64,000 nt of DNA from Squalus acanthias (lineage: Eukaryota), in assembly GCA_030390025.1 (NCBI GenBank), contig CM059432.1, forward strand, positions 38,566,001 to 38,630,000, written 5' to 3'. Each line of letters opens with the position of its first letter. The first letter of the stretch is position 1. Below the pieces are notes generated by a model. It saw nothing but the letters and a program-made list of their open reading frames with translations, was not told the origin of the DNA and searched no databases. Below, piece after piece: positions 13,022 to 61,029 of the stretch. The position numbers and the translations under genes are program-made.

Positions 13022-13259
13022 TGTTGTGGCTGTCGCGAAACACGAATTAAGGCTGAATCCATGTGTGTTAAACAAGAGACTTTTTAATCACAGCATGGCA
13101 CAAAATGGCTGAACAGAAAAGCTCCCAGAATTCTCTGGGCAAACCCTGAGGCCCTGCCCACTCCTGCCTTAAAGGTAAGGTGCCTTAAAGGGAAGGTGCT
13201 GGATATTTGTCCACGGACGGAAGAGTAGAAAATGCCCGTTTAGGTGGCGATCCGCCACA
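13022..13259 (-). repeat. Gypsy 3' LTR
   Basis: Direct repeat of 17130-17367 (about 7 mismatches by eye). Confidence 0.95.
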
Positions 13260-13279
13260 CAGCTACCCCCAGAATCCGC

Positions 13280-16200
13280 TTAGGAGGTGTGGACGAGACA
13301 GTGCGGCGGTCTGATGGGCCGGCCAGAGCGGCTCTTGTAGGACGCCGGTGGATGTGGAACGGCCGGGCGTGGAGCAGCCGGGTGAACCGGCTTGAGGGCA
13401 GGTCGGCCGCGTGGAGGTGGATGAGCTACAGGGACCTGCTCACCGGGCTCCGAGTGTGCTGGCTTGAGTCGGTCAACCGACACTTTTTCGGTCCTGTCGC
13501 CCACTTGCAGGGTGAAAAATTTGTCCCCAGCCTGTAGCACCTTGTAGGGACCGTCATACGGGAGTTGAAGGGGTCCGCGGTGGGCGTCGTGCCGGATGAA
13601 AACAAACCGTGCCTGGTGCAAGCTTAGTGCGACGTGTGAGGTGGATTCGCCGTGTCGGGCAATGGGCACCGGGGCGAACTGCAGCGCCGGTGAGGCGAAG
13701 TCGTGGCGTTGCTGGTCGGCTGACCAGGGTGTCGTGGCGGTGGGCAGGAACTCGCCGGGTACGCGCAGCAGCTGACCGTACATGAGCTCTGCTGCCGATG
13801 CGTGGAGGTCTTCTTTAACCGCGGTGCGCAGGCCGAGGAGGACCCACGGAAGTCGATCGGTCCAGGCGCCATCTTGGAGGCTGGCTCGAAGAGATGCCTT
13901 CAAGGATCTGTGGAACCGTTCTCACAGTCCGTTGGCTTGCGGGTGGTACGCTGTGGTGCGGTGAATGGTCACCCCGAGATTGCGTGCGACGGCAGTCCAG
14001 AGTTCAGACGTAAATTGCAGACCTCTGTCCGAGGTCATGTCGGAGGGGACGCCGAACCGTGTGACCCAGGTGCTGACGAAGGCTCTGGCGATGTCGGCGG
14101 TGGTGGTAGAGGTCAGTGGAATTGCCTCAGGCCAGCGTGTGGTGCGGTCAACGATGGTCAGCAAGTGCGTGTGGCCTTGCGATGGCTGCAGGGGCCCGAC
14201 GATGTCCACGTGGATGTGGTCGAATCTCCGCGAGGGGACGGTAAACTCCTCGAGGGGTGCTTTCATGTGTTGCTGTACCTTGGCCCGTTGGCAGGCTAGG
14301 CAGGAGTTGGCCCAAGTACGCACATCCTTGCGAAGGCCGCGCCAGACGAAGCGGTTGGCTACCAATTTGATGGATGCGCGGGCACCGGGGTGGGAGAGGT
14401 TACGGAGAATGTCGAATACCCGGCGGCGCCAGGACGCTGGGACGACGGGCCGAGGTTGACATAGGGATATGTCGCACTTGACCGTGACTGCGGTCGGGCC
14501 ACAGGCGAGTCGGCCAGGCGTAGCCCTGGTAGGTTGGTGGGTACGGAGAGCAGATCAGGGTCGGTGATCTGATCTGCTGCGAGTTGAGCGTAGTCGACAG
14601 CTAGGTGTGCGGCGTGGATGGCGGGGCGGGAGAGGCAGTCGGCTACCACATTGTCTCGGCCGAAGACGTGTTGGATGTCCGTGGTGAACTCGGACACTGC
14701 CGCGAGCTGGCGCTGCTGCCTGGCGGACCAGGGGTCGGTTGTCTTTGCCATTGCGAATGTCAGGGGCTTGTGGTCGACAAACGCAGTGAAGGGGTGGCCC
14801 TCAAGCAAAAACCGGAAATGGCGGACCGCCAGGAACAACGCGAGGAGCTCGCGGTCGAAGGTGCTGTACTTGACCTCCGAGGGGCGTAGTTGGCGGCTGA
14901 AGAAGGCAAGTGGTTGCCAGGCGCCATCGACCCACTGCTCATACACGGCGCCGACCACGTGGTCGGAGGCGTCCGTGGTGAGCGCTACCCTGGCATTGGG
15001 CCATGGGTGCGCTAGCAGGGTGGCGTTGGCGAGCGCGGTCTTGGTGGAATCGAAGGCGGCGGACGCGTCTGCCATCCATTCGACCACCATCTTGCCGCTC
15101 CTGCCCCGGAGGGCTTCATACAGGGGCCTCATGAGGGACGCTGCTTTGGGGATGAAGTGGTTATAGAAATTCACCATCCCGAGGAACTCCTGGAGGCCTT
15201 TGATGGTGGTGGGGCGGGGAAATTGTTGGACGGCCTGCACCTTGGTGGGCAGGGGAATGGTCCCAGCATGGGTGATGTGGTGGCCGAGGAAGTCGATCTT
15301 GTCCAGGCCGAACTGGCATTTGGCTGGGCTGAGGATGAGGCCGTGGTCGCTGAGGTGCCCGAACAGGATGCGAAGGTGTTCGAGGTGTTCCTGCTTGGAG
15401 GAACTGGCTACCAGGATGTCGTCCAGGTAGACGAACAGGAACTTCAGGTCCCGAAGGACCGAGTCCATGAGCCGTTGGAATGCCTGGGCCGCGTTTTTGA
15501 GACCGAAGGGCATCCGCAGGAACTCGAACAGGCCGAAGGGGGTGATTACGGCCGTCTTGGGGACGTCCGCGGGGTGGACGGGGACTTGGTGGTAGCCGCG
15601 CACCAGATCGACCTTGGAAAAGACTGAGCGGCTGGCCAGTCTAGCCGAGAAGTCCTGAATGTGCGGCACGGGGTACCGATCAGGGGTGGTGGCATCATTG
15701 AGGCGGCGGTAATCCCCGCAGGGGCGCCAACCTCCGCCTGGTTTGGGGGCGATGTGGAGTGGGGAGGCCCAGGGACTGTTAGAGCGGCGGATGATGCTGA
15801 GCTGTTCCATGGTGGCAAACTCGGTCCGCGCGATCTCCAGTTTGGCCGGGTCCAGCCTGCGGGCATGGGCGTACACTGGGGGGCCTGTGGTGGGGATGAA
15901 GTGTTCCACCCCGTGTTTGGCGGCCTCCGCGGAGAAGGTCGGATTGGTAAGGGCCGGGAATTCAGCCAGGAGTGCCGAGTAGTCATCCGTGGCCTGGGCG
16001 TGGCACTGTGACGCCATGTCGGCGGGTTGATGGGGGGCCATGGCGCCCAGGATGGGGGACATGTTGTTCATGTCCACGAGGCGGTGATGAGGGATGTCTA
16101 CCAGTAGGCCGTGGGCGCACAGGAAATCTGCGCCGATGAGGGGGGAGAGCACCTTGGCAGTGATGAACTCCCATCGGTAGCGGTGACCAGCGAGGTCGAG

Positions 16201-17090
16201 GGTGACTGTCCGGGTGCCATACGACCGGATTTCCGAGCCGTTAGCAGCAGCCAGCGCCGGTCCTCGTTCGTCCTTTTGGATGTCGAGGGAGGAGGTCGGG
16301 ATGATGCTGTGCTGAGCCCCAGTGTCGCACAGGAACCGGCGGCCGGTTTTGTCATCCGTGACGAACAGCAGGGAGCCCGCGTGGCCCACGGCCATCGCGG
16401 GGGCTGGTACGGGGGCGGACTTGAAAGAGCAGGGAACTGTGCACCGTTGTGCCCTGGCGCCGAACTGTGCGTGGTAGTAACAGTGGCCCGGGTTAGTGGG
16501 GCGTGAAGGCCCCATGGGCCTGGTGGCAGGCCCTTGTGGCCGCGTGCTGGCCGGTGAGGGGCGCGCCCAGGCATTGGCTGCCAGGTCTGGAGTGACGTCG
16601 CGGCTGGAGTGAGCGGACAGCAGCTCGTCGGCCTCATCGGCCAGGGCTTCCAGGTTCGTGAGGCCGGACGCCACGATCGCTGGGCGGATGCTGAGAGGGA
16701 GCTGGCGGATGAACAGCGTGCGGAAGAGGGATCCGGGTGGGCTCTCGTCAGTGAGGGAGAGCATGTGGGAGAGGAGGTCTGATGGTGAGGCATCACCGAG
16801 GCCTGGGAGGTCGAGGAGGTGGCAGTGTCGCTGATATGCCGAGGCCGTAAATTTTTTAAGGAGCGCTGTCTTGAGATGTGCGTACTTGCCTTCCTCTGGT
16901 GGGTTCTGCAGCGTTGTCCAAACCTTCGAAACTGTGGCACTACCGAGTGATGTGACGAGATAGTCGTACTTCGTCCCATCTGTGGTGATGCGTTGCAGCT
17001 GGAAGCGCGATTCAGCTTGGAGAAACCAGGCTTCGGGTTGGTTTTCCCAAAACTCCGGCAGTTTCACGGAAACTGCGTTCGTCCGCCATT
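13280..17090 (-). pseudogene. Gypsy gag-pol polyprotein, slightly disrupted
   Basis: VKLPEFW gag, CYYH..FG..A..C knuckle, LCDTGA protease, YLDD RT, TTDAS RNase H, HVDIVGP/SDRG/YHPQANG integrase; frameshift near 14480 and in-frame TGA at ~13922. Confidence 0.9.
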
Positions 17091-17114
17091 GCAGTGCTCG
17101 GAATACGTTCTGAG

Positions 17115-17128
17115 CGTCGGGGTCACCA
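17115..17128 (-). promoter_or_regulatory. Primer binding site complementary to the tRNA-Trp 3' end
   Basis: TGGTGACCCCGACG 1 nt inside the 5' LTR; matches the start of the classical Trp PBS TGGTGACCCCGACGTGAT. Confidence 0.85.
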
Positions 17129-17129
17129 A

Positions 17130-17367
17130 TGTTGTCGCTGCCGTGAAACACGAATTAAGGCTGAATCCATGTGTGTTAAACAAGAGACTTTTTAATCACA
17201 GCATGGCACAAAATGGCTGAACAGAAAAGCTCCCAGAATTCTCTGGGCAAACCCTGAGGCCCTGCCCACTCCTGCCTTAAAGGTAAGGTGCCTTAAAGGG
17301 AAGGTTTTGGATATTTGTCCACGGACGGAAGAGTGGATAATGCCCGTTTAGGTGGCGATCCGCCACA
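17130..17367 (-). repeat. Gypsy 5' LTR
   Basis: Direct repeat of 13022-13259; followed by PBS on the minus strand. Confidence 0.95.
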
Positions 17368-17655
17368 CTGCCCTACATTACAACAACTGCTTGGGGGCCT
17401 ATAAACAACTCCCACCACTGTTTTCTGCCCCTTGCTGTTTCTTAGCTCCACCCAAACTGATTCTACTTCTTGATTTTCAGAGCCAAGATCCTTTCTCTCT
17501 ACTGACTTTATCCCATCCTTTATTATCAGGGCTAGCCCTTCTCCTTTTCCATTTTGGCTATCTCTTCTAAAAGTTAAGTATCCTGGAATATTTAGTTCCC
17601 AACCTTGGCCACACTGCAACCACGTCTCCGTAATGGCTATTAGATCAAAACTAAT

Positions 17656-18421
17656 GGCCCAGAAATTCGCTTCTCCAGCTTGCCGCGGGGGTAAGGATCG
17701 CGTGCGCTCTTACCTACCACACCTGCCGTTGTGTTCTGGGCCCACGGGAACTTCAGCTCCTGGTCCTGCTCCAAGAGCCGGCGCGCAGTGCTTGCGTGTC
17801 CCAGGGGCGTAGTTAGTGCGATGCGTCCCCTGGGATCATGTGGGCCATGGAGAGCCAATGGCAGCAGACCATCCTTCATTCATAGATTTGACAGGAGACC
17901 TGTCAAATCTGTGAATTGAAATCGGCCCCAAAAGAACAGCTAAACTTCAAATATTTTTTTTTAAAAACCCATCACATTTATAAAATAACTATAGTTAAAT
18001 AAATTAACCACTTTAAACAAAAGTTAAAATTTTTGAAAAAATTTAAAGTATTTTTTAAAAGTGATAAAAATAAACTTACCTTTCTTTAAAGTATCTAAAA
18101 AAGATAAACCTGTTGAAAAAAATTTAAAATTATACTTAATTAACCACTTACCTTGTTGAAAACGGGTCTTGCGCCTCCTTTTTAATAGCATAGTTTCTTC
18201 AATACTTACCCTCGCGTAGAAACCTGAAAAAAAATCTAAGTTTGCTGCGTGCGCGCAACCTCTAGCGCGCACGCAGTTCACCTGGGAACCGCCCCCTTCA
18301 CCATACCGGAAGTTCCGGTTTCCCGCGTATGCGCAGTGCATGCAGGAAACCGGCACTTCGGGACGCATTACGGGTGAGTACGGACTGTGTACTCACCCGG
18401 GAAGGGCCGAATTTTTGGCCC
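17656..18421. mobile_element. MITE family B, copy 2
   Basis: TIR GGCCCAGAAATTCG...CGAATTTTTGGCCC; exact AAT TSD; interrupts the CR1 endonuclease. Confidence 0.9.
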
Positions 18422-18816: not shown

Positions 18817-19525
18817 CAGTAGAAAAATTCCCCTTTGCTCCCTACAGTAGCGCCAGGTGAAGGTAGCAACTGCTGCAAGCGACGTGAGCAGGGCGGCCGG
18901 CCGCCAGCGGGCTGGAGGTTAAAGGTGACGTAGCTGGCCGCCCTGAAAAAAGTCAGCTTTTTTTAAAAAATTTCTTTTTGCTCTGGACGTGGGGTCCGTG
19001 CCGTGATCGGTCAGCCTGGCACTCTGCTTGAGTGCTGGGCTGATCACGTGGCAGCCCCGCTCCCCGGTGCTGCAGGTAAGTTAAAAAAACACTGCAGAGT
19101 TCGCAGCGTGGGGCCCTTCCCTTTAATTCAGGGAAGAGCCCCCGCAACGCATTAGCTGAGCCGTGCACCCCGGGTCATGAACATAGAAACATAGAAACAT
19201 AAAAGATAGGAGCAGGAGTAGGCCATTCAGCCCCTCGAGCCTGCTCCGCCATTCAATGAGATCATGGCTGATCATCCAAATTCAGTACCCTGTCCCTGCC
19301 TTTTCCACATATCCCTTGATCCCTTTAGCCTTAAGAAATATATCTAACCTCCCCCCCACTTGCGCTCCAAGAAGGAAGTGGAGTGCTTGATTTAGCGCTC
19401 CACTTCCCTCTTGGAGCAAAAAGTGGGAATTTTAGAAAGGCTGGACGAGGTTAGCGCCTGGCGCTAACTTTTCCAGCTTTTCTGATTTAGCACCCCAAAC
19501 AGGGCTCGATGGGAATTTCTAGCCC
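18817..19525. mobile_element. Probable Harbinger-type MITE interrupted by a CR1 3' tail (19178-19348, minus)
   Basis: AAAATTCCC...GGGAATTTCTAGCCC ends; TTAGCGCCTGGCGCTAA motif shared with family A. Confidence 0.5.
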
Positions 19526-20582: not shown

Positions 20583-21471
20583 ACTCTAGGAGCTTCACCC
20601 AATTTACAATTATTGACTCGGCTCCCCCGCTCCTGGTGATTAGCACCTATTGAAGACAATCACTTACAGCTGACTAACAGTTAACTGCTATTGGCAGGCA
20701 GCTTCTGTTAACAAATTTCTAAAGTTCTGGGTTAAAATCATAATGTTAAACTAAATTTCACTTTTTATATCTACTACTTACCCCAATACTTACCAGAAAT
20801 TCCCACTCTTCAAAGTTCCCAAATAAAACACTGTTTAAGTACACTCCATTTCAATCTGCTCTTTGCAGACCACTCTGTGCTCATGGTCTGGAAGCCAGCA
20901 GAATTTCCAATATGGTGTCTTGGCAGGAGAAACATGGGCCCCAATATTAATATAAAGGCAGCTTCCGAGCGAGGGGTGCAGGTGGAATTGCGTGTGAGAA
21001 ACCCGAAAGTTAACTGAGTGGGTCAGAATCTGCGATCTAAACTCAATTGTAGCAATGAATTTTGACTTCTGGGTTTAGCGTCTCCAAGCTGCGCAGCGGG
21101 CATGATGCGCACCCACAGGAAGTGACCTCAGCTCTATTTAAAGGGTCAGTGCACAAATGGAAACTGGAGGTGTTCAGGATGGTTCGTAGACATAGAACAA
21201 GGGCAGCACCAAGATTTAATGAGGCCTCTCTGGAATTACTGCAGGCTGCAGTCAGGAGGAGGAGGGACATACTTTTCCCAGGAATGGGAGGAAGAAACCT
21301 GCTGCTCTCACTAAGAAGGCATGGTTGGAGGTAGGTGAGGGGGTGGGCAGCAGGAGCGTTGTGCCCAGGTCATGGATGCAATGTAGAAAGCAATATAATG
21401 ACCGAACCAACTCAGGAAAAATGAGTGCATTTGCTGATTCAACTACCTAATGTGCTTTAAGTCAGCCCCCC

Positions 21472-26402: not shown

Positions 26403-27192
26403 TGATGTCTGCCACCGCCTGATGTGACAACCTCAGCCTATGGAAGCACTGCTCTTCTGAGAGGTCAAGGAAACTGAGCCTCTGTCTGTAAACCCTGTGA
26501 TGTGGGTAGTATCTCCTGTGACCTTGGCTCCTCTCCTGTGCACCTCTCTCCTGTACACGTGCTGATCCCACCACAGCACTTCGTTGTTGCCGTGGATGGT
26601 GATGGTCTTCCTCTTCTGATGTGCTGTCAAACACATCCAAGGCGCCTCCCATCCGGCTCGTGTCAATTTGAAACCCTCCAAGGTTGAAAAAAGCTGTATC
26701 CACACAAGCACTCTCTGCCAAACGTTTACCAGAGGGAACTGAGACAGTGGCTGCAATAAGTGAGCTTTTATTCAGATGGGACAATAACAAGTTTAAATAC
26801 CCACCTAAGCTACTGCTCAAACCTCCCTCCATTTCCCTGGTCAGTTTCCCGAGCCCCGGGAAACCCGTGCTGCTCAGGTTAAATTTGAAGCCCAGTTAAA
26901 AACAATTTAAAAATACCTCATTAACATCTCCAAAGGATGTTAATTGTGCCAATAAGTGCCCGCCCACATCCAATGATGAAATCCCTGACTTCGGCGAGTA
27001 GGTTTCTCACCGGCATCAAAACCCACCTTCGTGAACTTGGAAGTCAAAAATTTTAACCCTCCCCCCCCCCACCCGTTCCCAGTCCACCTGTTCTTGGGGG
27101 TTAAAATTCCCCCCATGAAGTCAGAAAAGGAACCTTGTAATATCGTTTAACATCCAACAGAACAGGCAGACAAGGCCTCGATTTAACATCTC

Positions 27193-28882
27193 GGCCGGAA
27201 TTTTGCTGGTGCTCAGCGGACGGGATTGGTGGTGGGTCGGCAGTGAAATTTGATTTGATTGACAGCGAGTCGGGAACCCGCTGTCAAATCACACAAACTT
27301 GCCTTTCCCAATGTTGGGTCTGCCAGCGCTGAGCAGACCCGACCGGCAGTGGCGAGGGACCGAATATAAACAATTATTGGCTTGTTGACAAATCCTTTAG
27401 AGTGAATTTAACCTTACCTTTTGACTTTAACAGCTCGCCCACAGCTCCCACGCTGCTCCTGGACCCGGTCTGTTAATCTGAGGCAGAAGTTAAGTGGCCA
27501 TTGAATCAGCTAATGAGTGACAGCTTGAAATGTAGTATAAATGCTCCCACTTCACACCTGTTCACTTTCGAAGCACAGAGGCTGTTGCTTTCTCCCTTTG
27601 GAACACAGATTGAGCTTTATGCAGGCTGCAAGTGTTTGGAGCAAACTCTCCAGCCAGTGTCACCTCATTGCAGCAACCTCTCTCACCATTGACAGATTGC
27701 TTCTGTCATCTCAACTTCAACTGCTCTCTACTCCATCAGCATGGGTACCATTTACACTCTCTCACCTTGGTCCTCAGAATCTGACCAAAATGAGCCCCAA
27801 CACCAGCAGCAACAATAACAACACCAACCTTCTCCGCAATTAACTGATGCTGCACAGGACAGAGGGCATCAGCACCCGAGCACATTGCTGCCCGGGAGGC
27901 CAGGGATGGCCTCACCATGGCCAGATTTACTTCACTTGATGCTGTACACCCTGGCTGTCACATGATGCGCCAAGTTGGCACCACCCTGCACCAACACCAT
28001 AAAGCATCCCTACAATGCCCAACCCATTCCTTTCACATTCATCACCATTGCGGGGCTACCATTATGTCGCACCATTCACTGCAACTCACTAAGCCACTTC
28101 CAAAGGTGCACATAAATCTGTCCAAGAATGCAAAGTGTTGAAAATAAAGGCTTCAATGTTTGACACCACATTAACAGAAACTTGACATGAACATTGCATA
28201 AAACACCCAAGTGCCTACCCTTGTGTGTTGTTAATTGTTATGATTGGACTAGGATGAGGGTGAATGTGAGGGGTGGCTAGTGAGATGGGGATGTGATAAT
28301 ATAGATAGGGAGGGATGGGTGGAGGTCCAAGGTAAGTTGGTGTGAGTAAGGATGTGTAGGAGGAGGGTGGGGATGTGATGAGAGGCACAGCAGGATGAGG
28401 TTGAGTGTGGCTTTGTACTAACGTTTCGTGATCTACTGAGATCATTGAAATGTTTGTGGCACAGCACCCAGGTCCTCCTGACCACATCTCTGCTTGTGAG
28501 CTCCTCTGCAATGTGCAACCAGGCTGTGTTGATCTTCTGGGGAGGTCTCTTCCGCCCATGGGAAGGGAAGAGGAAGGACCTCCCTGCGTGGTGTGGCTCC
28601 TTCCATAAGCATATGAAGGGAGTCATGGGAGAGCCTGGGTGCAGTCATTGTTAGTGTTTACAGCACCTTAATGATCCCTTTAAGAAACTGGCTGATGACG
28701 CATCATCAAATGACGTCACCAGACCCACTTCCTCTAATTGGCTGGGAAACGCGCTGAGCGGGCTTAACAAGCCCAATCAAGCGAAAGTCATTTCAGACAG
28801 CGGGATGGAGCCAGTGGCAGGGCCGCGACCCGCCACCGACGTCGCCCGCCCCGGACCCGCCGAAGTCAGCAAAATCGCGGCC
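27193..28882 (-). mobile_element. Non-autonomous Harbinger derivative (family C) retaining a Myb/SANT exon remnant (28420-28648), inserted in a minus-strand DeuSINE-like SINE
   Basis: TIR GGCCGGAATTTTGCTG / CAGCAAAATCGCGGCC; exact CTC TSD; TAWLHIAEELTSRDVVRRTWVLCHKHFNDL. Confidence 0.8.
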
Positions 28883-39900: not shown

Positions 39901-40868
39901 GATTACTCTACTTTTTTGGGGGCTTTAAATTCAGATTGGCTATCTCACAGATATAAACAAAAACTACCAATAACATTTTCAGGGGTACAAAGAATAAAGA
40001 GCAGTTCAGAAATAGGAGGGATCATACGGGGGAAATGCGAGGCAGATAAGATGGGTATGGAGTGCATGTGTGTAAATGCACGGAGTGTGGGAAATAAAGT
40101 TGGTGAGCTGCAGGCACAAATAATGGGACAAATGGGCACTTAATAATTCTGGCTACAAGGTATTCAGGAAAGATAGGGAAGGTAAAAAAGGAGTGGGGTG
40201 GCCGTATTGATCAAAGAAACTATTATAGCACTGGAGAGCAATGATGTAGTTGAGGGGTCAAAGACAGAGTCTATTGGGTTAGAATTAAGGAACAATAGAG
40301 GAGCTATTATGCTGCTGGGTGTATACTACAGGTCAACAAATAGTGGGAAGGAGTTAGAGGAGCAAATTTGCAGGCAAATTGCAGAAAGATGTAAGAACTT
40401 TAGAGTAGTGATAATGGGGGTCTTCAATTATCCTAATATAGACTGGGAAAATAACAGTGTAAAGGACAAAGTGAGGGAGAAATTCCTGAAATGTGTACAA
40501 GAGAACCTTCTTGATAAGTATGTTTCCAGCCCAATGAGGAAGGAAGCAGCGCTGGATTCAGTGCTGGGGAATGAAGTGGGGCAAGTGGAGGTTGTTTCAG
40601 TGGGGGAGCATTTGGGAAACAGTGATCACAATACCATTAGGTGTCGAGTAGTTATGGAAAAGGACAAAGAAAAATCAAATGTGAAAATATTCTACTGGAG
40701 GAGGGCTAGTTTCAGTGAGTTGAAATGAGATCTGGCCCAGGTGGATTGGAATCAAAGATTGGCAGGTAAAACAGTAAATGAGCAATGAGAGGTCTTCAAA
40801 GAGGAGATAGTTCGGGTACAGACTAGACACATTCACATGAGGGGGAAAGGATGGCCATTCAAAACTAG

Positions 40869-41755
40869 GGGGGAGAAATTCGGTCTTGTCCCGTTTGCGG
40901 CGCAATAATCGGCCGAGCGCAAAGTTTTGCGCCTGGCGCTAATTATCGCCTCTGACTGCAAATTTGGCCTCTATTGCCCCTGGAGGTGATTGGAGCGCTA
41001 AATCAGGTGCTACACACCTGTCTTAAGGCACTAACGCCGAGGAGCGAGGCGCTACCTCAGAGCGCTGGCGAAGCTCAGGTGATGTCAGTCAGCAATGGAA
41101 CACAGACACACTGGCACTGGCCAGTTCTTAAAGGGGAGGGATGATCTTGCTCTCCATCCACACCCTGCTCATTGCAGCCTTGAATCTCGGCTGGAGAGAC
41201 CTGTACATCAATTTTGCTGGAAAGAACAATGGAGAGGCCCAGGGAAAATGCTCAGAGTGCAGCCCCCACAGTCTCTTCTAAATCGATGCAAGGAAGGTCA
41301 AATCAAAATGAACCTGCAAAGTGCTGCTCAGTACCCAAAACCCCTTCACACAGCATTGAATCTCTCCAGAAGTCTCTCTCTCTCTCTCAGAATGCGTGGT
41401 GCAAAAATGTCACCGACAAAAAAAGGCAGGAAGCGGTTGCCTTTAAATAGCGCTCCCCAAATCCCTTCCCGACTGCAAAACGTTCCCCTCTGCCCATCGT
41501 TGCTAGTGGCATGAGGAAAGGCAGGGGGCACCACTCAATATCCGGTCCAGGGCACTACCGGGGCGTTGCACGCTTGACTGACGTCATGATCTGTGGGCGC
41601 AGGAGATCGTGGCGGTAGTGTTTAGTGCCACCGCAAAATGGTCAATTTCACGAGCGGCGCAAACATCGCCGCACCCGGGCACTAGTTGCTTTGTGCCCCA
41701 TTAGTGCCCTCTTAGGGCGCTAACGGGAGGCACTAATCAACCGAATTTTTCCCCC
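40869..41755 (+). mobile_element. MITE family A, copy 2
   Basis: TIR GGGGGAGAAATTCGGT / ACCGAATTTTTCCCCC; clean interruption of CR1 (AAAACTAG|AGCTCCC). Confidence 0.9.
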
Positions 41756-41920
41756 AGAGCTCCCTGGATGACTAAAGATATGGTTAGCGAGGGAACACAG
41801 ACACACTGGCGCCGGACACTTCTTAAAGCGGGGGGGGCCACTTGCTCCCCAGCCACACCCTGCTCATTGCAGCCTTGAATCTCAGCCTGGAGAGACCTGT
41901 AATCCATTTTGCTGCCAAGC

Positions 41921-43940
41921 ATGGAGAGGGTGAGAGAACGCGCTCATCGCTTCACCGAGCGGGCCTTGGATGCTCTGGTTGACGCAGTGGAGCGCAGACG
42001 ATGCATGCTGTTCCCAGAGAGTGGCAGGAGGCCTTTGCCACGCGAGTTCAGAAGAAAGTGGAGGGAGGTGGCTCAGAGCGTCTCCTCCAGGAGCATGGTG
42101 CCCAGGACCCATGTCCAGTGCCGCAAAAAGTTCAACGACCTCACTCGGGTCGTCAGGGTGAGTGGCTTTTTCTCAATACCTCTCCATCCCTCCATCTCAA
42201 CCTCACTCTATGGCCAGAGGGTCTTAAAACCCCAATGCACAACACTCATCCAACACCTATGGCCCTTTCATCAAACACACACACACATTCCACACTTTGC
42301 ATACAGTAAGGGCTATTCACCTATGGGAGGCACATCAGGCAAGACCATGGCTGCATATTGTAAGGGCTATTCACCTATGGGAGGCACATCAGGCAAGACC
42401 ATGGCTGTATATTGTAAGGGCTATTCACCTATGGGAGGCACATCAGGCAAGACCATGGCTGTATATTGTAAGGGCTATTCACCTATGGGAGGCACATCAG
42501 GCAAGACCATGGCTGTATATTGACTCAGATGCTGTCCTTTTTCTTGCAGGCTAAGCTGGCTCATAATCGGAGACAGCAGCAACGGACGGGTGGAGGGCGG
42601 CTTCAGCTGCAACCCCTCAGCGATCTGGAGGAGCGCGTCCACAGGATTGTGGCAAGCCGGGTGATCGGTCCCGTCGCCACTGGAGACGCCGACCCCGTTG
42701 TGGACAGCAATGGTAAGGTCATCACCTTTTTGTCCTCTGTCCTTCCACTTGTCCCTCACAATACCAGCCTTTGACACTTTCAATCCAACTTGCTAACTCG
42801 CTGCACTTATTCCTCCCTTACTGCCACCCTGTCCTCACGCTAAAGCCACTCTTGTACCTCCCTGCTTTCAGATGGTGATTCACCAGCTGAGGAGATGGTC
42901 CCTGAAGCTGCCACTGGGAGAGATGCTGCAGCTGAGGAGGAAGAGGAAGCCGGAGCATCAGTGCCACCCTCTCCCGAGGAAGCCCATGGCCACACTGGGA
43001 ACACGCCTTCCCCGGAGGGGAGCAGGGGGGAAGGGGCTGATGATGGTGAAGTTCCAGGACCCAGCGGGCTGCAGCAACGCCATGGGGGGGGGAGGGAAGA
43101 ACGGGGGAGCAGGGGGGAAGGGGCTGATGATGGTGAAGTTCCAGGACCCAGCGGGCTGCAGCAACGCCATGGGGGGGGGGGAGGGAAGAACGGGAGCCTT
43201 CTCCCCAGAGGGAGAGTATGCCAGACACTCCTAATGCAATGGACGCAGAGGAGGAGCGGCTGATTGCAGAAATGAACAGCCAGGCGGTGGTCATGCACAC
43301 TGAGCTCATGGGTGCAGTGGGAAGGGTGCCCGAATGCATTGAGGCACTGGCAAGGAGTGTGGAGCACTTCGCTGTAGCACAGGCTGATGCCACACTAAAG
43401 CTTACTGCTGCAATTCAGTCACTGGCTGCCAGGAACCCATCTGAGCCTGCTCTCATGCAGACTCAGATTGAGGCCACGCGAGCACTGACTGCTGCCATCC
43501 TCGATGGTTCGTGCACATGTCCCCGGGGCTGTCACCGCGCCGCAGCAGGCCAGCAATCTGTTCTCAGGCAAATTGCTCCGGATGCTGAAGTGCTGCCCCG
43601 TGGGAGTGCCAGTGTGTCGGGCGAGCAGGGAGTTGCTGTCCTCTCTCACGATGACAGCATTCCTGCTGCCAACACTGTCACTTCTCCACTGCACTTGCCA
43701 CCGCCTGTAGGACAGACTGCTGCCGCCCATGCAGAGTTGGTGCAGTCTGCAGCCGGGCCCTCCAGGCCCAGAACTGGTCGAGGCCGTCCTTCAGGGGCAT
43801 CTGCAGTGTCAGGGTCTGACAAGCAGCAGCCTTCCACCAGCCTTGCTGCAGCCACTGAGGTCCCATTACGGAGGAGCAGTAGGGTTAGAAGGGGGGAAGT
43901 GCGCAAGGGAAGGAGATCACCCTCGAAGGGCAAAAAGTAG
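41921..43940 (+). CDS. Harbinger Myb/SANT-like DNA-binding protein; predicted exons 41921-42157, 42550-42712, 42872-43940, with a frameshift in a G-run at ~43171-43181
   Basis: RFTERALDALVDAV...W.EVA.SVS...RTHVQCRKKFNDL then RTGGG; GT-AG introns in compatible phases (AGG|GTGAGT, TTGCAG|GCT, AATG|GTAAGG, TTTCAG|AT). Confidence 0.85.
42306..42521 (+). repeat. 54-bp minisatellite x4 in Myb intron 1
   Basis: Units start at 42306, 42360, 42414 and 42468; nearly identical. Confidence 0.95.
43017..43194 (+). repeat. 87-bp coding tandem duplication
   Basis: SRGEGADDGEVPGPSGLQQRHGGG unit present twice. Confidence 0.9.
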
Positions 43941-44234
43941 GAGGTGTGCCAAAATGCTGGTCATTTTTTTATTAAAGGCCGAGGTTCATGGCCCAACTTT
44001 TGTTTAGTGTTTTGGACATTATCTCCAGGTTGTGAGAACCAGTTATGTTATTGACTGTTTTTTTGTGTTTATTTCTATGAGTTTGTCATGAGGAATTGAC
44101 ACACACAGAGTTTGTACAATAAATAAGTTTCTGTATTCAAAATATACATGGCTGGTGGTTGGAATTATTGGTGCCTTGGCCGGCTTAGGGGTTGCGTGCT
44201 GGGTTGATTCGTGTTTGTAGCACTGGCAGGGGCC

Positions 44235-45395
44235 CTAGAAGCGGCTTGCTATTAGTCGTTGACGGACGGCCCTTGCAGTTTGACCATTGTGGGCCGCCCT
44301 CCTGCCTTGGTGCTGCTGATGATCATCGTCCTCGGCCTGTTCCTCCTCTTCCTCCTCCTCCTCTTGTGGTGCTGCAAGGCCTGGTGGCATTGGCTGCGTC
44401 CTGAGGATTGCCATGTTGTGCAACATGCAGCACACCACTACGAATTTGGAAACTTGCTCAGGCGAGTACTGCAGGGCTCCTCCGGAATGGTCCAGACAGC
44501 GGAATCGTTGTTTGAGCACGCCGATTGTGCGCTCAATAATGTTCCTCGTTGCTTGTTGGCTTTCCTGGTACCGCAGCTCAGCAGGGGTGTTTGGCGCACG
44601 GAGCGGTGTCATCAGCCAGGTGCTCAATGCATACCCCTTGTCCCCCAGAAGCCAACCAACTGGCTGATGCGGTGCCTCGAAAATTTCTGCCACAGTACTC
44701 TGGCGCAGGATGAAAGCATCGTGGCAGCTGCCCGGATAGTGGGCATTGACAGCGAGAATCACCTGTCTGTGGTCACAGACCAACTGCACATTCAAGGAAT
44801 GGAACCCCTTTCTGTTCCGGAACTCCTCTGCATTCTCTCGCGGAGCACGCAAAGCCACATGCGTGCAGTCAATGGCGCCCTGCACCATGGGGAAGCCCGC
44901 TACCCTCGCAAAGCCCATAGCACGGTCATGCTGCTTGTCTGGGGTCATAGGGAAGGAGATGAAGTCTCGTCTCCTTGTGAAGAGGGCATTGGTGACCTGC
45001 CGGATGCAGCGATGCACCGCAAACTGGGAGATATTGGCGAGGTCCCCAACAGCAGCTTGGAATGAGCCAGTGGCGTAGAAGTTCAAGGCCACTGTGACCT
45101 TCACTGCCACCGACAAAGACGTCCTGGACCTCAGCTGAGGCTGCAGATCTGGCTGCAGCAGGTGGCAGAGCTCAGTGACCACCTCCTTGCTGAATCGCAG
45201 CCTTCGCAAACACAGCTCCTCGGACATGTGGATGTAGGAGAGCTGTTCACGATATACCCTGGGAGGGTAAGCTCTCCTGTACATGCGCCTGATGGGCCTC
45301 CTCCGTCTGGCCATCATTGCCACTCTCTGTCTGCGTCTCACTCTGCTCCGATTGAGCTGGAGCAGGACGACGCCCCCAATCATTGCAGCCCCCAT
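44235..45395 (-). CDS. PIF/Harbinger DDE transposase (HARBI1-like), intact 386 aa
   Basis: VALNFYATG, GAIDCTH, RNRKGFHSLNVQ, GSCHDA, LLGDKGY, IERTIGVLKQRFRCL, CCMLHN. Confidence 0.95.
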   Translation of the reverse strand: MGAAMIGGVVLLQLNRSRVRRRQRVAMMARRRRPIRRMYRRAYPPRVYREQLSYIHMSEELCLRRLRFSKEVVTELCHLLQPDLQPQLRSRTSLSVAVKVTVALNFYATGSFQAAVGDLANISQFAVHRCIRQVTNALFTRRRDFISFPMTPDKQHDRAMGFARVAGFPMVQGAIDCTHVALRAPRENAEEFRNRKGFHSLNVQLVCDHRQVILAVNAHYPGSCHDAFILRQSTVAEIFEAPHQPVGWLLGDKGYALSTWLMTPLRAPNTPAELRYQESQQATRNIIERTIGVLKQRFRCLDHSGGALQYSPEQVSKFVVVCCMLHNMAILRTQPMPPGLAAPQEEEEEEEEQAEDDDHQQHQGRRAAHNGQTARAVRQRLIASRF

Positions 45396-45950
45396 CTTCT
45401 CTTTGCCAGAAAAGTAATGAGGTACAGCAACGAAAGTAGCAGCAAAGTTAGGATGAACTAGGCAAAACTACCTCACAAAGCGTTGAGTCAATGTAGAAGT
45501 CTCTCTCTCTCTCTCTCCGAATCTCTCTCTCTCTCTCAGAACGAGTGGTGCATAAATGTCGACCACAGAAAAAGACAGGAAGAGGCCCCCTTTAAATAGC
45601 GCCCCCCCCAGCCCCAGACCGATTGATAACGTTCCAGTCTTCCGGTCGTTGGAAGCGCCAGGCGGTAAGGCAGGGGGCGCCACTCAATTTCCGCTCCGGG
45701 GCGCCCCAAGGGCGTTGCACCACGGACTGACGTCACAATCTGCGCGCGCAGGTGGTCGCAGCGGTAAGTTTTAGCGCCGCCGCACAAGATTAAAATGAAA
45801 CAGAAAAAGGACGCTTATGATAAATGTCGGGTTCATAATGCAGTAGAGAACCAAGCTGAATATAAAAAGTACAGTGGAGAACTGAAAAAGGAAATAAGAG
45901 GAGCAAAGAGAATGTATGAGAATAGATTAGTGGGCAACATAAAACATAAA

Positions 45951-46611
45951 GGGGGAAAAATTAGGTTGATTTGTGCCTCTCGTTAGCGCTAACGGGATGC
46001 AAATCCCCTAGCGCCCGGGCGCGGCGCTGCTGATGCCTCCCGCGAAATTCAGCAGGAGGTTAGCGGCGGCAGTAGCCTTTAGTGCCCTGCCGTGCGCAGC
46101 GCCCCGGCCACAAACGTCCCTTGCGCCCGCTGACCTAGCGCCGAACGATATGTCCGACAGGGTCAGGGGTCGTTTTCTCAGTGGCGGTGGCGCTAATAAA
46201 AGGAGCAGGTGTCGGGCGGCCATTTTTTTTTGGCTGACTGCCAGCACCTGCCCCCTTCCCCTTTTTTTCCTCGGGGTGCCGGCCGCGATCACTCAGCCCG
46301 GCACTCCTCTTGAGTGCCAGGCTGTTTTCATGGCACCCCGATCCCGGTGGTCTAGCAGAGGCGCGTGGGGAGGAGGCCTGCAATGATGTGGCGCTACATG
46401 CCATCGCACATGACGCTGTTTCACATAGCGCCGCGATCTTTAGTAGTAGCGCCCCAAGAAGGAGGTGGAGCACTTCCAGTAGCGCTCCACCTCCTGCTTG
46501 GGGTGCTACTACTGAATTTCCAGTGAGGGGGCGCTAACTTTTTCGGGGCGCTAAAATTAGCACCCCAGCGACGTTAGCACCCCATAAGGGGCACCACCCA
46601 ATTTTCCCCCC
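45951..46611. mobile_element. MITE related to family A
   Basis: TIR GGGGGAAAAATTAGG / CCCAATTTTCCCCC; AAA flanks; first ~100 nt resemble 58036-58150. Confidence 0.8.
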
Positions 46612-47240
46612 AAAATCTTTTATGAACATGTAAATAGTAAAAGAGTAGTCAAAGAAAGGATGGGGTTGATTAGGGAGCTAAAAGGAGATCTTCTTGTGGA
46701 GGCAGAGGGCATGGCTGAGGTACTAAATGTATACTTTGCATCTGTATAACTAAAGAAGAAGATGCTGCCAATGTTACAGTAAAGGAGGAGGTAGTAGAGA
46801 TATTGGATACGATAAAAATAGATAAAGAGGAGGTACTTAAAAGTTTGGCAGCGCTCACAGTAGAAAAATCACCTGGTCCAGATGGGATGCATCCTAGGTT
46901 GCTGAGGGAAGTAAGGTTGGAAATTGCAGAGGCTCTGGCCACAATCTTCCAATTCCCCTTAGATATGGGGGTGGTGCCAGAGGACTGGAGGATTGCAAAT
47001 GGTGCACACTTGTTCAAAAAAGGGGAGAGGGATAAACCTGGCTACTGTAGGCCAGTCAGCTTAACGTTGGTGGTGGGGAAACTTAATCCAGGACAAAATT
47101 AATTGGCACTTAGAAAAATATGGGTTAATAAATGAAAGCCAGCATGGTAAAAGGTAAATTGTGTTTCACTAACTTGATTGAGTTCTTTGAGGAAGTAACG
47201 GAGAAGTTGATTAGGGTAGTATGGTTGATGTTGTGTATAT

Positions 47241-47825: not shown

Positions 47826-48117
47826 GTTAAAAAGGCATACAGGAGCCTTGGCTTTATAAGTAGAGGCATACAGCACAAAAGCAAAGAAATTAAGCCAAAC
47901 ATTGGCTATGCCCCAGCTGAAGTACTGTGGCCATCACACTTTATGAAGGATGTCAATGCCTTAGAGAGGGTGCAGAGAAGATTTAATAGAATGGTACCAG
48001 CGATGAATGACTTCAGTTACATGGAGAGACTAGAGAAACTGGGGTTGTTCTCCTTAAAGCAGAGAAATGTGAGAAGTCGCACAACACCAGGTTATAGTCC
48101 AACAGCTTTATTTGAAA

Positions 48118-48154
48118 TCACAAGCTTTCGGAGCGCTGCTCCTTCGTCAGGTGA
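48118..48154 (-). ncRNA. Minimal type I hammerhead ribozyme motif
   Basis: TCAC-CTGACGA-A-GGAGC AGC GCTCC-GAAAGCTT-GTGA. Confidence 0.8.
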
Positions 48155-49550
48155 AGTGAAGAGATGCATATAGGCACAGCATATATAGTCAGAGAACACT
48201 GCCAGATGATTACAGTTAATCTTTCTAACTGCCCTTTATCACACCTCGGCAGAGAGATAATCACGGCAATCAAAGGTGTGGATGGTGTCCAAACGGGTCA
48301 GTCAGGAAAACATTACATCAAAGACAATGAGGTGGGGTCACAAGGGGTCGAATGTGGCAGATGCTGGGGTCTGTATGGAAAACAAAAAACTGTTTTTGCT
48401 GGAAATCACAGCAGGTCCGGCTGCATCTGTGTAGAGAGAACAAGCCAACGACGACTCGAGTCTGGATGACTCCACGTCAGGTGGGGTTACATGTAGCGTG
48501 ACATGAACGCAAGATCCCAGTTGAGGCCGTCCTCATGGGTGCGAAACTTGGCTATCAGTTTCTGTTCGACGATTTTTCGTTGTCGTGTGTCTCGAAGGCC
48601 GCCTTGGGGAACGCTTACCCGAAGTCACATGAGTATGTAGCATGTACCTGGTGGGTGGTGTCCTCACGTGTGATGATGGTATCTGTGTCGATGATCTGGC
48701 ATGTCTTGCAGAGGTTGCCGTGGCAGGGTTGTGTGGTGTCGTGGTCGCTGTTCTCCTGAAAGCTGGGTAATTTGCCGCGAACTGTTTGAGGTTAGGCGGC
48801 AGTTTGAAGGCGAGTAGTGGAGGCATGGGGATGGCCTTAGCGAGGTGTTCGTCGTCATCGATGACATGTTGAAGGCTGCGAAGTACATGGTGTAGTTTCT
48901 CCGCTCCGGGGAAGTACTGGACGACGTAGGGTACTCTGTTGGTTGTGTCCCGTGTTTGTCTTCTGAGGAGGTCTATGCGATTTTTCGCTGTGGCCCGTCG
49001 GAACTGTCGATCGACGAGGCAAGCGTCATATCCCGTTCTTACGAGGGCGTCTTTCTGCGTCTGTAGGTGTCCATCGCGTTCCTCCTCGTCTGAGAAGATC
49101 CTGTGTATTCGCAGGGCTTGTCCATAGGGGATGGCTTCTTTAACGTGGTTAGGGTGGAAGCTGGAGAAGTGGAGCATCGTGAGGTTGTCCATGGGCTTGC
49201 GGTAGAGTGAAGTGCTGAGGTGTCCATCTTTGATGGAGATTCGTGTGTCCAAGAATGAAACCGATTCTGAGGAGTAGTCCATGGTGAGTTTGATGGTGGG
49301 ATGGAACTTGTTGATGTTATCGTGTAGTCTTTTCAGTGATTCTTCGCCGTGGGTCCATAGGAAGAAAATGTCATCGATGTATCTGGTATATAGCGTTGGT
49401 TGGTGGTCCTATGCAGCGAAGAAGTCTTGCTCGAACTTGTGCATGAAGATGTTGGCATATTGGGGTGCGAATTTGGTCCCCATGGCTGTTCCGTGTGTTT
49501 GGGTAAAAAACTGGCTGTCGAAGGTGAAGACATTGTGGTCAAGGATGAAG

Positions 49551-49890
49551 CGGTACATGGTACATACTCATGTGACCCGGCCAACGTTGTCTACCTCATA
49601 CGTTGCAGGAAAGGATGCCCCGGAGCATGGTACATCGGCGAGACCATGCAGGCACTGCGACAACGTATGAACGGACACCGCGCAACAATCGCCAGGCAGG
49701 AGTGTTCCCTCCCAGTCGGGGAACACTTCAGCAGTAAAGGACATTCAGCCTCCGATCTTCGGGTAAGCGTTCTCCAAGGCGGCCTTCGAGACACATGACA
49801 ACGAAAAATTGTCGAGCAGAAACTGATAGCCAAGTTCCGCACCCATGAGGACGGCCTCAACCGGGATCTTGGGTTCATGTCACACTACAT
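49551..49890 (+). pseudogene. Penelope GIY-YIG endonuclease domain
   Basis: VVY...YIGET..LRQRMNGHR...VGEHF; premature TGA at 49796. Confidence 0.85.
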
Positions 49891-50226
49891 GTAACCCCAC
49901 CTGACGTAGAGTCATCCAGACTCGAGTCGTCGTTGGCTTGTTCTCTCTACACAGATGTGGCCGGACCTGCTGTGATTTCCAGCAAAAAAAGTTTTTTGTT
50001 TTCCATACAGACCCCAGCATCTGCCACATTTGACCCCTTGTGACCCCACCTCATTGTCTTTGATGTAATGTTTTCCTGACTGACCTGTTTGGACACCATC
50101 CACACCTTTGATTGCCATGATTATCTCTCTGCCGAGGTGTGATAATGGGCAGTTAGAAAGATTAACTGTAATCATCTGGCAGTGTTCTCTGACTATATAT
50201 GCTGTGCCCATATGTATTTCTTCACT

Positions 50227-50263
50227 TCACCTGATGAAGGAGCAGCGCTCCGAAAGCTTGTGA
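50227..50263 (+). ncRNA. Minimal type I hammerhead ribozyme motif
   Basis: TCAC-CTGATGA-A-GGAGC AGC GCTCC-GAAAGCTT-GTGA. Confidence 0.8.
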
Positions 50264-51863
50264 TTTCAAATAAAGCTGTTGGACTATAACCTGGTGTTAT
50301 GCGACTTCTCACATTTGTCCACCCCAGTCCAACACCGGCATCTCCACATTAAAGCAGAGAGGTTTAGAGGAGATTTGATAGAGCTGTTCAAAATCTTGAA
50401 AGGCTTTGATAGAATAAATAAGGAGAAACTGTTTCCAGTGGCAGAAGGGTTGGTAACCAGAGGACACAGATTTAGGTAATTAGCAAAAGAACCAGAGGCA
50501 GCATGAGGGAAAAAAAATTTACGCAGCGAGTTATGATCTGGAATGCACTACCTGAAAGGGTGGTGGAAGCAGATTTAATATTAATTTTCAAAAGGGAATT
50601 GGATAAATAATTGAAGGGGAAAATTCGCAGGGCTAGAGGGAAAGAGCAGGGCAGTGGGACTAATTGGATAGCTCTTTCAAAGAGGCAGCACAGGCACGAT
50701 GGGCAGAATGGCCTCCTGTTCTGTATCATCCTATGATTCTATGATAATATGCTACTGAACCTATTAAATTTGATTTGGATGTGTGTGTCTATAATATATA
50801 TATTACACACACATATATTTAAATATATTTTTTTATTCAAAAAGTGAATTCAAGTGAAGAAAGAAAGAAAGCAGATAATAACCAGTTTATCTATTTTGGT
50901 TGTGTTGGTTGAGGGAGAAATGTTGGTTAACTGCCTTGCTCTTCTTCAAAAAGGGAATTTTATGTCCATCTGAACCCACAGACATAGCCTTGGTTTAATG
51001 TCTCATCCAAAAGTTGGCATGATAAAATTAAACTAATTTATTAAACACAGTTGAACTCTCACTATATTACCTTTCCCTGAAATTCCATGGGTTTCTCCCG
51101 GTCTTCTGGTGTTACTACAGCAGGAGATCAGCAGAATACCCAGGGAAATGGTGCAGCAGCCAATTTTCTCCGTGAACACCATTTCCCTGAAATCCTTGGC
51201 ATTCATAAGGAATTTCCTCAATGTTCCATTTAACCGATTGTCCAGTAACTACTTCTTGTGAAAGATGACTCAACCGGATTAGTAAAGCTCTTTGGGATAA
51301 TTTTATTTAAAATACGTCAAGCAAATAATCTTTCAAGTTATAAAAATGCAAGGTTCAAAATAGGATAGAGTTAAGTCGTGAAGAAATAAATGTTTGCATT
51401 CTTATAGCCTCGAACATAAAGCTTAGTTAAGCTTCTTCCCTGAACAACTCTTTCAAGGAAGTGAAAACTTCAGCAGCAAATTAAATACCCTTTGTGTCAA
51501 AACACGATTAGCAACAGGATAACTAATCCTCTCAAAAAAAGTCTCCAGCTACCAAGAGAGATCTACATAGTTAATGTCTTTGCTGCATTGTAGGCAGCTG
51601 CATTTGTATGGTACTTAGAGACTTTCCAGATTAGAGTATCTGAAGAGTGAACAATTATTAAGATTTGGTCACTTGTTACTCTTTATTTTTATAGATAGGT
51701 AATGATCAAAATAGATTGCTCATGTAAGGCCAATGTTGGACTGGGTGTTAAATGTTAAGGATTCCTTTCAAAACAACAAGATGGAAGAATTATATGGTTA
51801 ATATTGACTATGATTCTAACAGGAGATTATTGTATCAATTATTGGTGCGGCTGGAATAACAAT

Positions 51864-52626
51864 GGGCCAGAAATTCGGCTCTTGTCGGGTGAGTACGCGC
51901 TGTGTACTCACCCGTAAGGCCACCTGAAGTGTCGGTTTCCTGCATGCACTGCGCATGCGCAGGAAACCGGAACTTCCGTTCCCCTGAAGGGAGGGGTTCA
52001 GAAGTCGAACGCGTGCGCGGGAGAGGCTGCGCGCACGCAGCGAACTTCAGTTTTTTTTTCAGGTTTCTCCGGGAGGGTAAGTATGAAGAAGCTGCACTTT
52101 TAAAAAGGAGGCGCAAGGCCTGTTTTTAACAAGGTAAGTGGTTAATTAATTACAATTTAAACATTTTTTCAACAGTTTTATCTTTTTTAGATACTTTAAA
52201 GAAAGGTAAGTTTATTTTTAGCACCGTTAAAAAGTATAATTAATTTTTTCAAAAATTTAAATTTTTGTTTAAAGTAGTTAATTTATGTAACTTATAGTTA
52301 TTTTAAAAATGTGATTTTTTAAAAAATTTATTTTAAGTTTAAGTGTGGTTTTGGGGCCGATCTCTATTCATAGATTTGACAGGTCTTCCTGTCAAATCTA
52401 TGAATGAAAATGCCCTGCTAGGATTGGCTCTCCATGGCCCACGTGATCCCAGGGGACGCTTCGAACTAACTGCGCCCCTGGGATACGCAAGCACTGCGCG
52501 CCGACAGCTGGAGGAGGCCCAGGACCCGAAGTCCTCGTGGGCCCAAAGCACAACTGCAGGCGGGATAGGCAAGTACGCGCGCGATGCTTGCACCCGCAGG
52601 AACCCGGTAAGCCGAATTTCTGGCCC
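51864..52626. mobile_element. MITE family B, copy 3 (inverted relative to copies 1 and 2)
   Basis: Perfect 17-bp TIR GGGCCAGAAATTCGGCT; exact AAT TSD. Confidence 0.92.
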
Positions 52627-60698: not shown

Positions 60699-60908
60699 TG
60701 CGGAGATGCTGGTGTTGGACTGGGGTGGACAAATGTGAGAAGTCGCACAACACCAGGTTATAGTCCAACAGCTTTATTTGAAATCACAAGCTTTCGGAGC
60801 GCTGCTCCTTCGTCAGGTGAAGTGCCCGACGAAGGAGCAGTGCTCCGAAAGCTTGTGATTTCAAATAAAGCTGTTGGACTATAACCTGGTGTTGTGCGAC
60901 TTCTCACA
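60699..60908. mobile_element. 210-bp palindromic Penelope mini-insertion with a hammerhead motif (60784-60820, minus)
   Basis: Near-identical to the termini of 48066-50348; 14-bp TSD TATATCAATTATGA. Confidence 0.9.
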
Positions 60909-61029
60909 TATATCAATTATGACAATCCAGACAATGGAAAATATTGTACTGTTATACCAGTTTATAAGGGATAAATGGCTGTCCTAGATTTATGCAGAAA
61001 TAAAATGATACACAAAAGCAAAAACAACT

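Follow-up and report, generated by a model that had tools for sequence, protein, structure and literature searches.

A Harbinger element body lacking both ends inside a Harbinger-type target motif of a CR1 retrotransposon in Squalus acanthias

A stretch of 64,000 nucleotides from the Squalus acanthias genome (the window, to whose first letter all positions below refer) carries, within a CR1 long interspersed nuclear element (LINE), a 4,005-bp body of PIF/Harbinger origin that we call the core, flanked by two miniature inverted-repeat transposable elements, MITE A to its left and MITE B to its right. The core is very probably an end-truncated copy of a multi-copy family that was inserted independently of the MITEs. 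As to how it came to be joined to its host, we modestly favor end-joining repair of an end-trimmed element body at a site cut by a Harbinger transposase. The locus is composed as follows (ORF, open reading frame; TIR, terminal inverted repeat; TSD, target site duplication).

40186 to 40868, plus strand: host CR1 LINE ORF2 (endonuclease region), segment 1 (PF14529, E 5e-9; tblastn with another CR1 ORF2 of the window)
40869 to 41755, plus strand: MITE A, Harbinger-type and non-autonomous, 887 bp long, TIRs of 16 bp, target AAAC-TAG-AGCT (TIR pair, two further copies, empty site)
41756 to 41782, plus strand: host CR1 segment 2, 27 bases, the right TSD of MITE A included (CR1 alignment, contigs)
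41783 to 45787, plus strand: Harbinger core, 4,005 bp (homology to MITE A, empty CR1 sites, family continuations past both ends)
45788 to 45950, plus strand: host CR1 segment 3, 163 bases (CR1 alignment, contigs)
45951 to 46611, minus strand, judged from resemblance to MITE A's right end: MITE B, Harbinger-type, 661 bp long, bearing TIRs of its own, target ACAT-AAA-ATCT (AAA on each side)
46612 to 47200, plus strand: host CR1 segment 4 (CR1 alignment)

Homology between the core and MITE A begins at 41783 (MITE A 41088) and ends at 45787 (MITE A 41638); measured in this way, the core lacks 219 bp on the left and 117 bp on the right, both TIR-bearing ends included, close to the roughly 220 and 120 bp that the first-pass annotation had reported as missing along with both TIRs. 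No inverted repeat was seen between the first 40 bases at each core end, and adding the missing ends would give an element of about 4.3 kb. Public sequencing runs were consulted as Logan contigs: 20 of the 24 listed runs contain part of the stretch 41740–45960, four of the 24 (X1, X2, X4 and X17) were aligned, and contig depth totals are not taken as copy numbers. Past 45787, other copies of the family share one continuation (16 contigs in X1 and 13 in X2, agreement 96–97%), which rejoins MITE-A-like right-end sequence at 41647; on the left, one X4 contig extends 79 letters beyond 41783, its 30 displayed letters matching MITE A 41058–41087 at 21 of 30 positions, counted by eye. Because family copies continue past both breakpoints, the family's ends are longer than those of the core, and the core is truncated. 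A subfamily with ends of its own at 41783 and 45787 was considered and rejected, since the loose ends at 45787 share one continuation and not many flanks (on the left, the rejection rests on one displayed contig).

X4 is a very shallow run of 184 contigs in all, five of which (six listed pieces, from 23 aligned records) together span 3,596 of the core's 4,005 bases and differ from it at 18 of 3,654 positions (0.5%). Since so few contigs nonetheless span 90% of the core at this divergence, and since at so shallow a depth only abundant DNA assembles, the core's family is likely young and very high-copy. The two deep runs hold 52,691 and 84,227 contigs on the 6.5-kb stretch. As a separate observation, parts of 41740–45960 are present in runs under eight organism codes, and for six further codes (C–H) a fraction of 0.47–0.53 of the stretch's sampled words is present; if real, these shared words would make the Harbinger family common to several species at high identity.

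To what, then, is the core joined? With the inserts removed, one CR1 ORF2 aligns in register over all three insertion points (41% identity over 346 aa with another CR1 of the window), and CR1 indeed adjoins both core ends, as had been proposed. Empty CR1 copies in the public runs carry either the joint 41781>45787 with AG between (four contigs in X1, six in X2 and two in X17) or the joint 41783>45787 (three in X1 and five in X2, the letters between not being known). They place the host loss at the core joins at 0–2 bp and have nothing duplicated, so that the core is without a 3-bp TSD, again in line with the first reading. At the right join, the A at 45787 can be assigned to element and host alike, a 1-nt overlap; at the left join, base 41782 is not element sequence, and the G at 41783 can be assigned to both if the CR1 carried the GG variant found in other copies. 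With its ends, TIRs and TSD missing, normal cut-and-paste does not account for the core as it now stands, and, with its introns kept, it is not a spliced retrocopy; on both points the earlier view holds. RNA-mediated insertion in general was also rejected, as introns are present and both core ends lie outside the TATA-like motifs of its genes.

The Harbinger target motif A-N-N-Y-[3 nt]-R-N-N-T occurs at 7 of 7 half-sites of the MITE A and MITE B copies and at 9 of the 15 TIR half-sites of the window that were examined, where the background frequency is 0.13 (P 2e-5). The core site, ATAT-[3 nt]-GATT, fits it on both sides, and both breakpoints fall among its three middle bases, a placement shared by only 7% of cut points drawn at random. 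At the MITE B site, 10 of 12 flanking positions agree with the Harbinger3_DR target consensus of zebrafish, as quoted in PMC3016246. The TSDs of neighboring elements are TAG/CAG, AGA/AAA, AAA/AAA and one CTG.

On the end-joining account that we modestly favor, a Harbinger would initially have sat in a preferred target within the CR1. Its transposase would then have excised this resident by staggered cuts in the TSDs, and a free element body, trimmed by 219 and 117 bp, would have been ligated into the break via 1-nt overlaps. The ligated body may be the excised molecule itself or another member of the family. Staggered TSD cuts at excision, repaired by end joining, are the model proposed for the superfamily (PMC4561436), and breaks can capture DNA with minimal overlaps and without a TSD (PMC2671141). 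TIR bases are required for mobility (PMC9921582), and without them the core would be immobile. A more pointed variant would make the core a one-step fossil of self-immobilization, in which a Harbinger was excised, lost both TIRs and was religated at the very site it had left, its promoters and genes undamaged; we regard this as a long shot.

Several points weigh against the end-joining account. First, 1-nt overlaps are weak evidence that often arises by chance, and the left overlap hinges on which CR1 variant was present at the locus. Second, the motif at the core is a single event with a chance of about 7%; only 15 half-sites were tested, and all six misses lie outside the MITE A and MITE B group (another right end, at about 11810, misses the motif by eye). 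Third, what is seen of the family past the core ends is subterminal continuation, the family TIRs not being directly seen. Fourth, the core junctions stand as assembled: none of the 32 listed pieces spans either one (there are 134,234 others), and these are short, filtered contigs that give no evidence either way. Fifth, the ligation step rests on general knowledge of end joining, as a literature search in which subscription journals were mostly uncovered found no account of a re-ligated, doubly end-trimmed Harbinger. Finally, by a rough estimate about 0.006 triples this close are expected per window under uniform insertion, and local clustering must be assumed. Clustering of TIR-type elements is general in the window, as 5 of the 11 gaps between 12 hand-picked elements are shorter than 400 bp, in a survey where some bounds are approximate and Harbinger identity comes partly from TIR-like motifs.

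Could the break have had nothing to do with a transposase? Some 4 kb would then have been copied or captured from inside a distant family member at a random break, and the motif would be coincidental. Donors are plentiful in so abundant a family, and the missing TSD, the 0–2 bp loss and the minimal overlaps resemble the repair-mediated duplications interrupting transposons described in PMC2671141. However, both breakpoints would have to fall in a motif center by chance, and the captured DNA would have to happen to be Harbinger, nearly end to end. The window holds no donor either: its best other matches to the core reach 77–83%, and with nothing above 83% a proximal donor was rejected. Moreover, the core at 4,005 bp is longer than the cases in PMC2671141, which reach 619 bp in the proximal class and 3,424 bp in the distant one, and whose microhomologies measure 2–9 nt as against 1 nt at the core. 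We therefore consider capture at a random break unlikely, while granting it a real share of the probability. The first-pass annotation had itself raised templated break repair beside the MITE; break repair remains part of the preferred account, but the adjoining MITE A was rejected as the template, as it resembles the core ends, at 85.6% and 77.0% identity, no more closely than two distant copies do (85.5–88.8% and 79.2–80.1%).

Alternatively, a full-length element may have inserted normally, producing a 3-bp TSD, and its two ends may later have been removed by separate deletions, each beginning at the TSD, for example after single-end cleavage. The Harbinger-type target, with both host breakpoints within its three central bases, fits this sequence of events, and the MITE ends 27 and 163 bp away could have supplied the partner end for a second cut. 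Yet two rare events would be needed in the short time implied by 0.5% divergence, each deletion sparing the host flank almost exactly, and we judge the scenario improbable. It is also worth asking whether the core was simply mis-joined into the CR1 during assembly, in a region that is nearly all repeats. Mis-joins usually arise over long shared repeats. Here two would be needed, with the CR1 register kept to 0–2 bp and the joins sharing one base, which makes an artefact very unlikely.

The neighboring MITEs bear on a further proposal of the first-pass annotation, namely that the whole 5.7-kb unit is a composite transposon. Between MITE A and the core lie 27 host bases, and between the core and MITE B 163, nearly the 26 and 165 bp given at first. 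The TIR pair of MITE A matches at 15 of 16 positions, two further copies in the window are 89–93% identical to it, and other CR1 copies bypass it (joint 40867>41758, run X2). Judged by its divergence from X4 contigs, with 17 differences in 217 positions and 21 in 216 (8–10%) as against 0.5% for the core, MITE A is the older of these two dated insertions. The three inserts are separate insertions into one CR1, since the CR1 is in register through all of them and each has its own target motif; the host CR1 probably begins further left than 40186. A composite moved by the outer TIRs at 40869 and 46611 can draw on the similarity of the outer ends, which share 13 of their first 16 bases and are rightly oriented. 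Against it, the CR1 pieces within the unit keep the register of the CR1 outside it, so that the cargo is not foreign, the outer trinucleotides differ (TAG on the left, AAA on the right), each insert has a motif of its own and the parts differ in age, all of which leaves the composite extremely unlikely as an account of the past. Future mobilization of 40869–46611 as one unit is possible.

MITE B proved to be Harbinger-type with its own TIRs, as first described, but its kinship to MITE A is loose: some 110 bp at one end match at about 70% and lie in reverse orientation. It contains a hairpin with 36-bp arms (46439–46516), and a related element at about 18820–19525 has another at 19364–19417; arms are 24–36 bp and the loop is 6 nt. 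The MITEs related to the core have TIRs starting with GGG. A copy of MITE A at 1427–2308 is without the first five bases of the left TIR. Within MITE A, 41229–41275 places a Myb gene start and a transposase start back to back (compare 41921 and 45384–45395 in the core), with both TATA-like motifs kept; going by these retained gene starts, MITE A derives from a sister family by internal deletion. Beside the left end of MITE B, the CR1 shows a 7-nt tandem duplication at 45934–45950 and is a few bases shorter than other CR1 copies.

Within the core, the transposase and its upstream motifs are located as follows.

44235 to 45395, minus strand: Harbinger DDE transposase ORF, 386 aa, open (PF13359; D176/D252/E288)
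45591 to 45735, no strand given: TATA-like motif (45591) and TGACGTCA motif (45728), upstream of the transposase and common to MITE A

The intact 386-aa DDE transposase announced at first pass stands: the frame is open, matches PF13359 with E 5e-38 and keeps all three catalytic residues (D176, D252 and E288), of which the glutamate is absent from most of the 13 annotated relatives aligned. No named family matched the core at the DNA level; among the 120 listed of 371 protein matches, the closest transposase relatives, with identities up to 65%, come from sharks and rays and bear the name 'putative nuclease HARBI1'. A metagenome scan with the transposase gave 595 pattern matches and no relatives, and one with a 25-nt pattern gave no loci. 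In neutral simulations at 0.5% divergence (1,500 each, scoring stops and indels only), an ORF of transposase size stayed open in 83% of cases without indels or 52% with indels. The open frame thus needs no selection and probably owes its survival to the youth of the copy; differences at the locus are too few for a ratio of nonsynonymous to synonymous substitution (dN/dS). The TATA-like and TGACGTCA motifs may be promoters.

The second gene, of Myb/SANT-like type, is spliced and occupies the left part of the core.

41921 to 42157, plus strand: Myb/SANT-like gene exon 1, 79 codons (PF13873, E 2e-9; GT donor at 42158)
42298 to 42522, plus strand: 54-nt tandem repeat of about four units in Myb intron 1 (repeat search)
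42550 to 42712, plus strand: Myb exon 2 (AG/GT ends; homologs, e.g. P0124, fuse exon 1 and exon 2 sequence directly)
42872 to 43940, plus strand: Myb exon 3, frameshifted as assembled, with 252 C-terminal codons out of frame
43017 to 43192, plus strand: 87-nt tandem duplication, second unit 89 nt, the site of the frameshift

A TATA-like motif at 41820 lies upstream of the gene, both introns (42158–42549 and 42713–42871) are GT-AG, and homologs align to all three exons. Exon 1 also matches PF13837; searches with it returned one match in one case and 67 in another, and a search with the C-terminal ORF returned no match. As assembled, however, the spliced frame ends at a TGA (43261–43263, codon 264), so that the gene is not the intact one first described, and the label 'coding-competent' fits the core in its open transposase but not in its Myb gene. 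Three homologs (P0122, P0124 and P0125) cross into another frame, that of a 267-codon ORF, at about 43170–43180, where a run of G in the second 87-nt unit (43171–43181) counts 11 G against 9 in the first; over 43163–44305, the window exceeds X4 contig 29 by two letters (the place of the gap within this span is not listed). The frameshift may be real or may be a homopolymer error of the assembly; either is possible. An extra intron that would skip it was rejected, as the homolog alignments continue from one side of the G-run to the other with no gap requiring one. In X17, a run that may be RNA, two listed contigs run unspliced over intron boundaries, and none of the 15 displayed joints (281 in total) matches an intron.

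Among the features of autonomous PIF/Harbinger (PHIS) elements, the core thus has the DDE triad and a Myb/SANT gene and lacks TIRs, a TSD and, as assembled, a pair of open ORFs, and because of these three failings it is a defective copy derived from the family and not an autonomous member. Might it nevertheless have been kept as an immobile helper or an early stage of domestication, selection holding it open so that the transposase, and the Myb protein if the G-run is erroneous, serves the MITEs in trans? The open transposase with its complete triad and the TATA-like and TGACGTCA motifs kept upstream of the genes would suit such a role, and the sole Myb break found is a homopolymer, where assemblies err. 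Set against this are the Myb stop at codon 264 as assembled, with which the core would fail to provide both proteins, the 52–83% neutral survival of the open transposase, and the abundance of near-identical copies, which makes the core no special source. Domesticated Harbinger genes are, in addition, single-copy, syntenic and under purifying selection (PMC9392472), whereas 90% of the core is covered in a run of 184 contigs. The helper and domestication proposals of the first-pass annotation accordingly seem to us highly improbable.

As it stands, the core amounts to a single defective transposon copy, from an abundant family and with unusually clean joins, and its value is that of a lead. The kind of object, a truncated transposon copy, is real but ordinary; the curious detail is that both ends were lost inside a preferred target. 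If doubly trimmed, TSD-less bodies were found to be enriched in the motif, they would mark an excision-repair outcome that strips both TIRs while sparing both genes, a plausible first step toward co-domestication of a two-protein system. Were self-immobilization true, such copies would recur genome-wide within the target motif; if, in addition, the G-run is an assembly error, the core would be a fixed, excision-proof source of both proteins and would offer a starting state for the co-domestication of HARBI1/NAIF1-type gene pairs. The Harbinger family appears both young and plentiful in a cartilaginous fish, and PMC9179366 calls for further sampling of that lineage.

The window is nearly all repeats, with CR1-type LINEs, a long terminal repeat (LTR) element, a further reverse-transcriptase fragment and many TIR elements. 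A second MITE family (11059–11823, 17656–18421 and 51864–52626) has GGCCC/GGGCC-type TIRs and AAT duplications; the inner Y/R of the target motif fits its sites, and the outer A/T fits less often. Remnants of Myb and transposase genes from other Harbinger families, in a decayed state, lie at 21182–21420, 26404–26511 and 28429–28599. An LTR retrotransposon-like element at 14359–17154 on the minus strand, with a 931-codon open frame, looks young; its 242-bp direct repeats (13022–13263 and 17130–17371) are 96.7% identical. At 48062–50319, inverted repeats of 563 bp (96%) flank a reverse-transcriptase-like ORF (48533–49408), and their end sequence also makes a 90-bp hairpin at 60728–60914.

Set beside known systems, the core combines a DDE transposase with a Myb/SANT gene in the manner of Harbinger3_DR of zebrafish (PMC3016246, PMC9179366) and of the NuwaI group (PMC4482050), and its target-flank preference fits the consensus quoted for the former in PMC3016246. 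Unlike the autonomous members of both, it has no TIRs, no TSD and a Myb gene frameshifted as assembled; as for the CWG duplications of NuwaI, the core has no duplication to compare, and the TSDs of its neighbors are not consistently CWG. Harbinger-Snek of sea kraits (PMC8437027) is likewise a young, high-copy vertebrate Harbinger, with many intact or single-ORF copies; its variants lost a gene by large deletion, whereas the core lost its ends. Like HARBI1, NAIF1 and MSANTD1-4 (PMC9392472), the core is Harbinger-derived coding sequence that no longer moves, but those genes are ancient, single-copy, syntenic and under purifying selection, and the core belongs to a multi-copy family from which it differs by about 0.5%. 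The repair-mediated duplications of Pace et al. (2009; PMC2671141) share with it an insert that interrupts a transposon, the missing TSD, a tiny or absent host deletion and short overlaps; the core is longer (4,005 bp), has overlaps of 1 nt only and sits at a break in a Harbinger target motif, and, in contrast to their proximal class, with donors within 5 kb, no match above 83% occurs in the window. A parallel to the cut itself is the excision of mPing, a Tourist-like MITE: its sites usually close precisely (PMC4561436), whereas here 4 kb of element body remains, but staggered 3-bp cuts in the TSDs would leave one target copy, as the bases split between the two core joins suggest, and in mPing, too, TIR bases are needed for mobility (PMC9921582).

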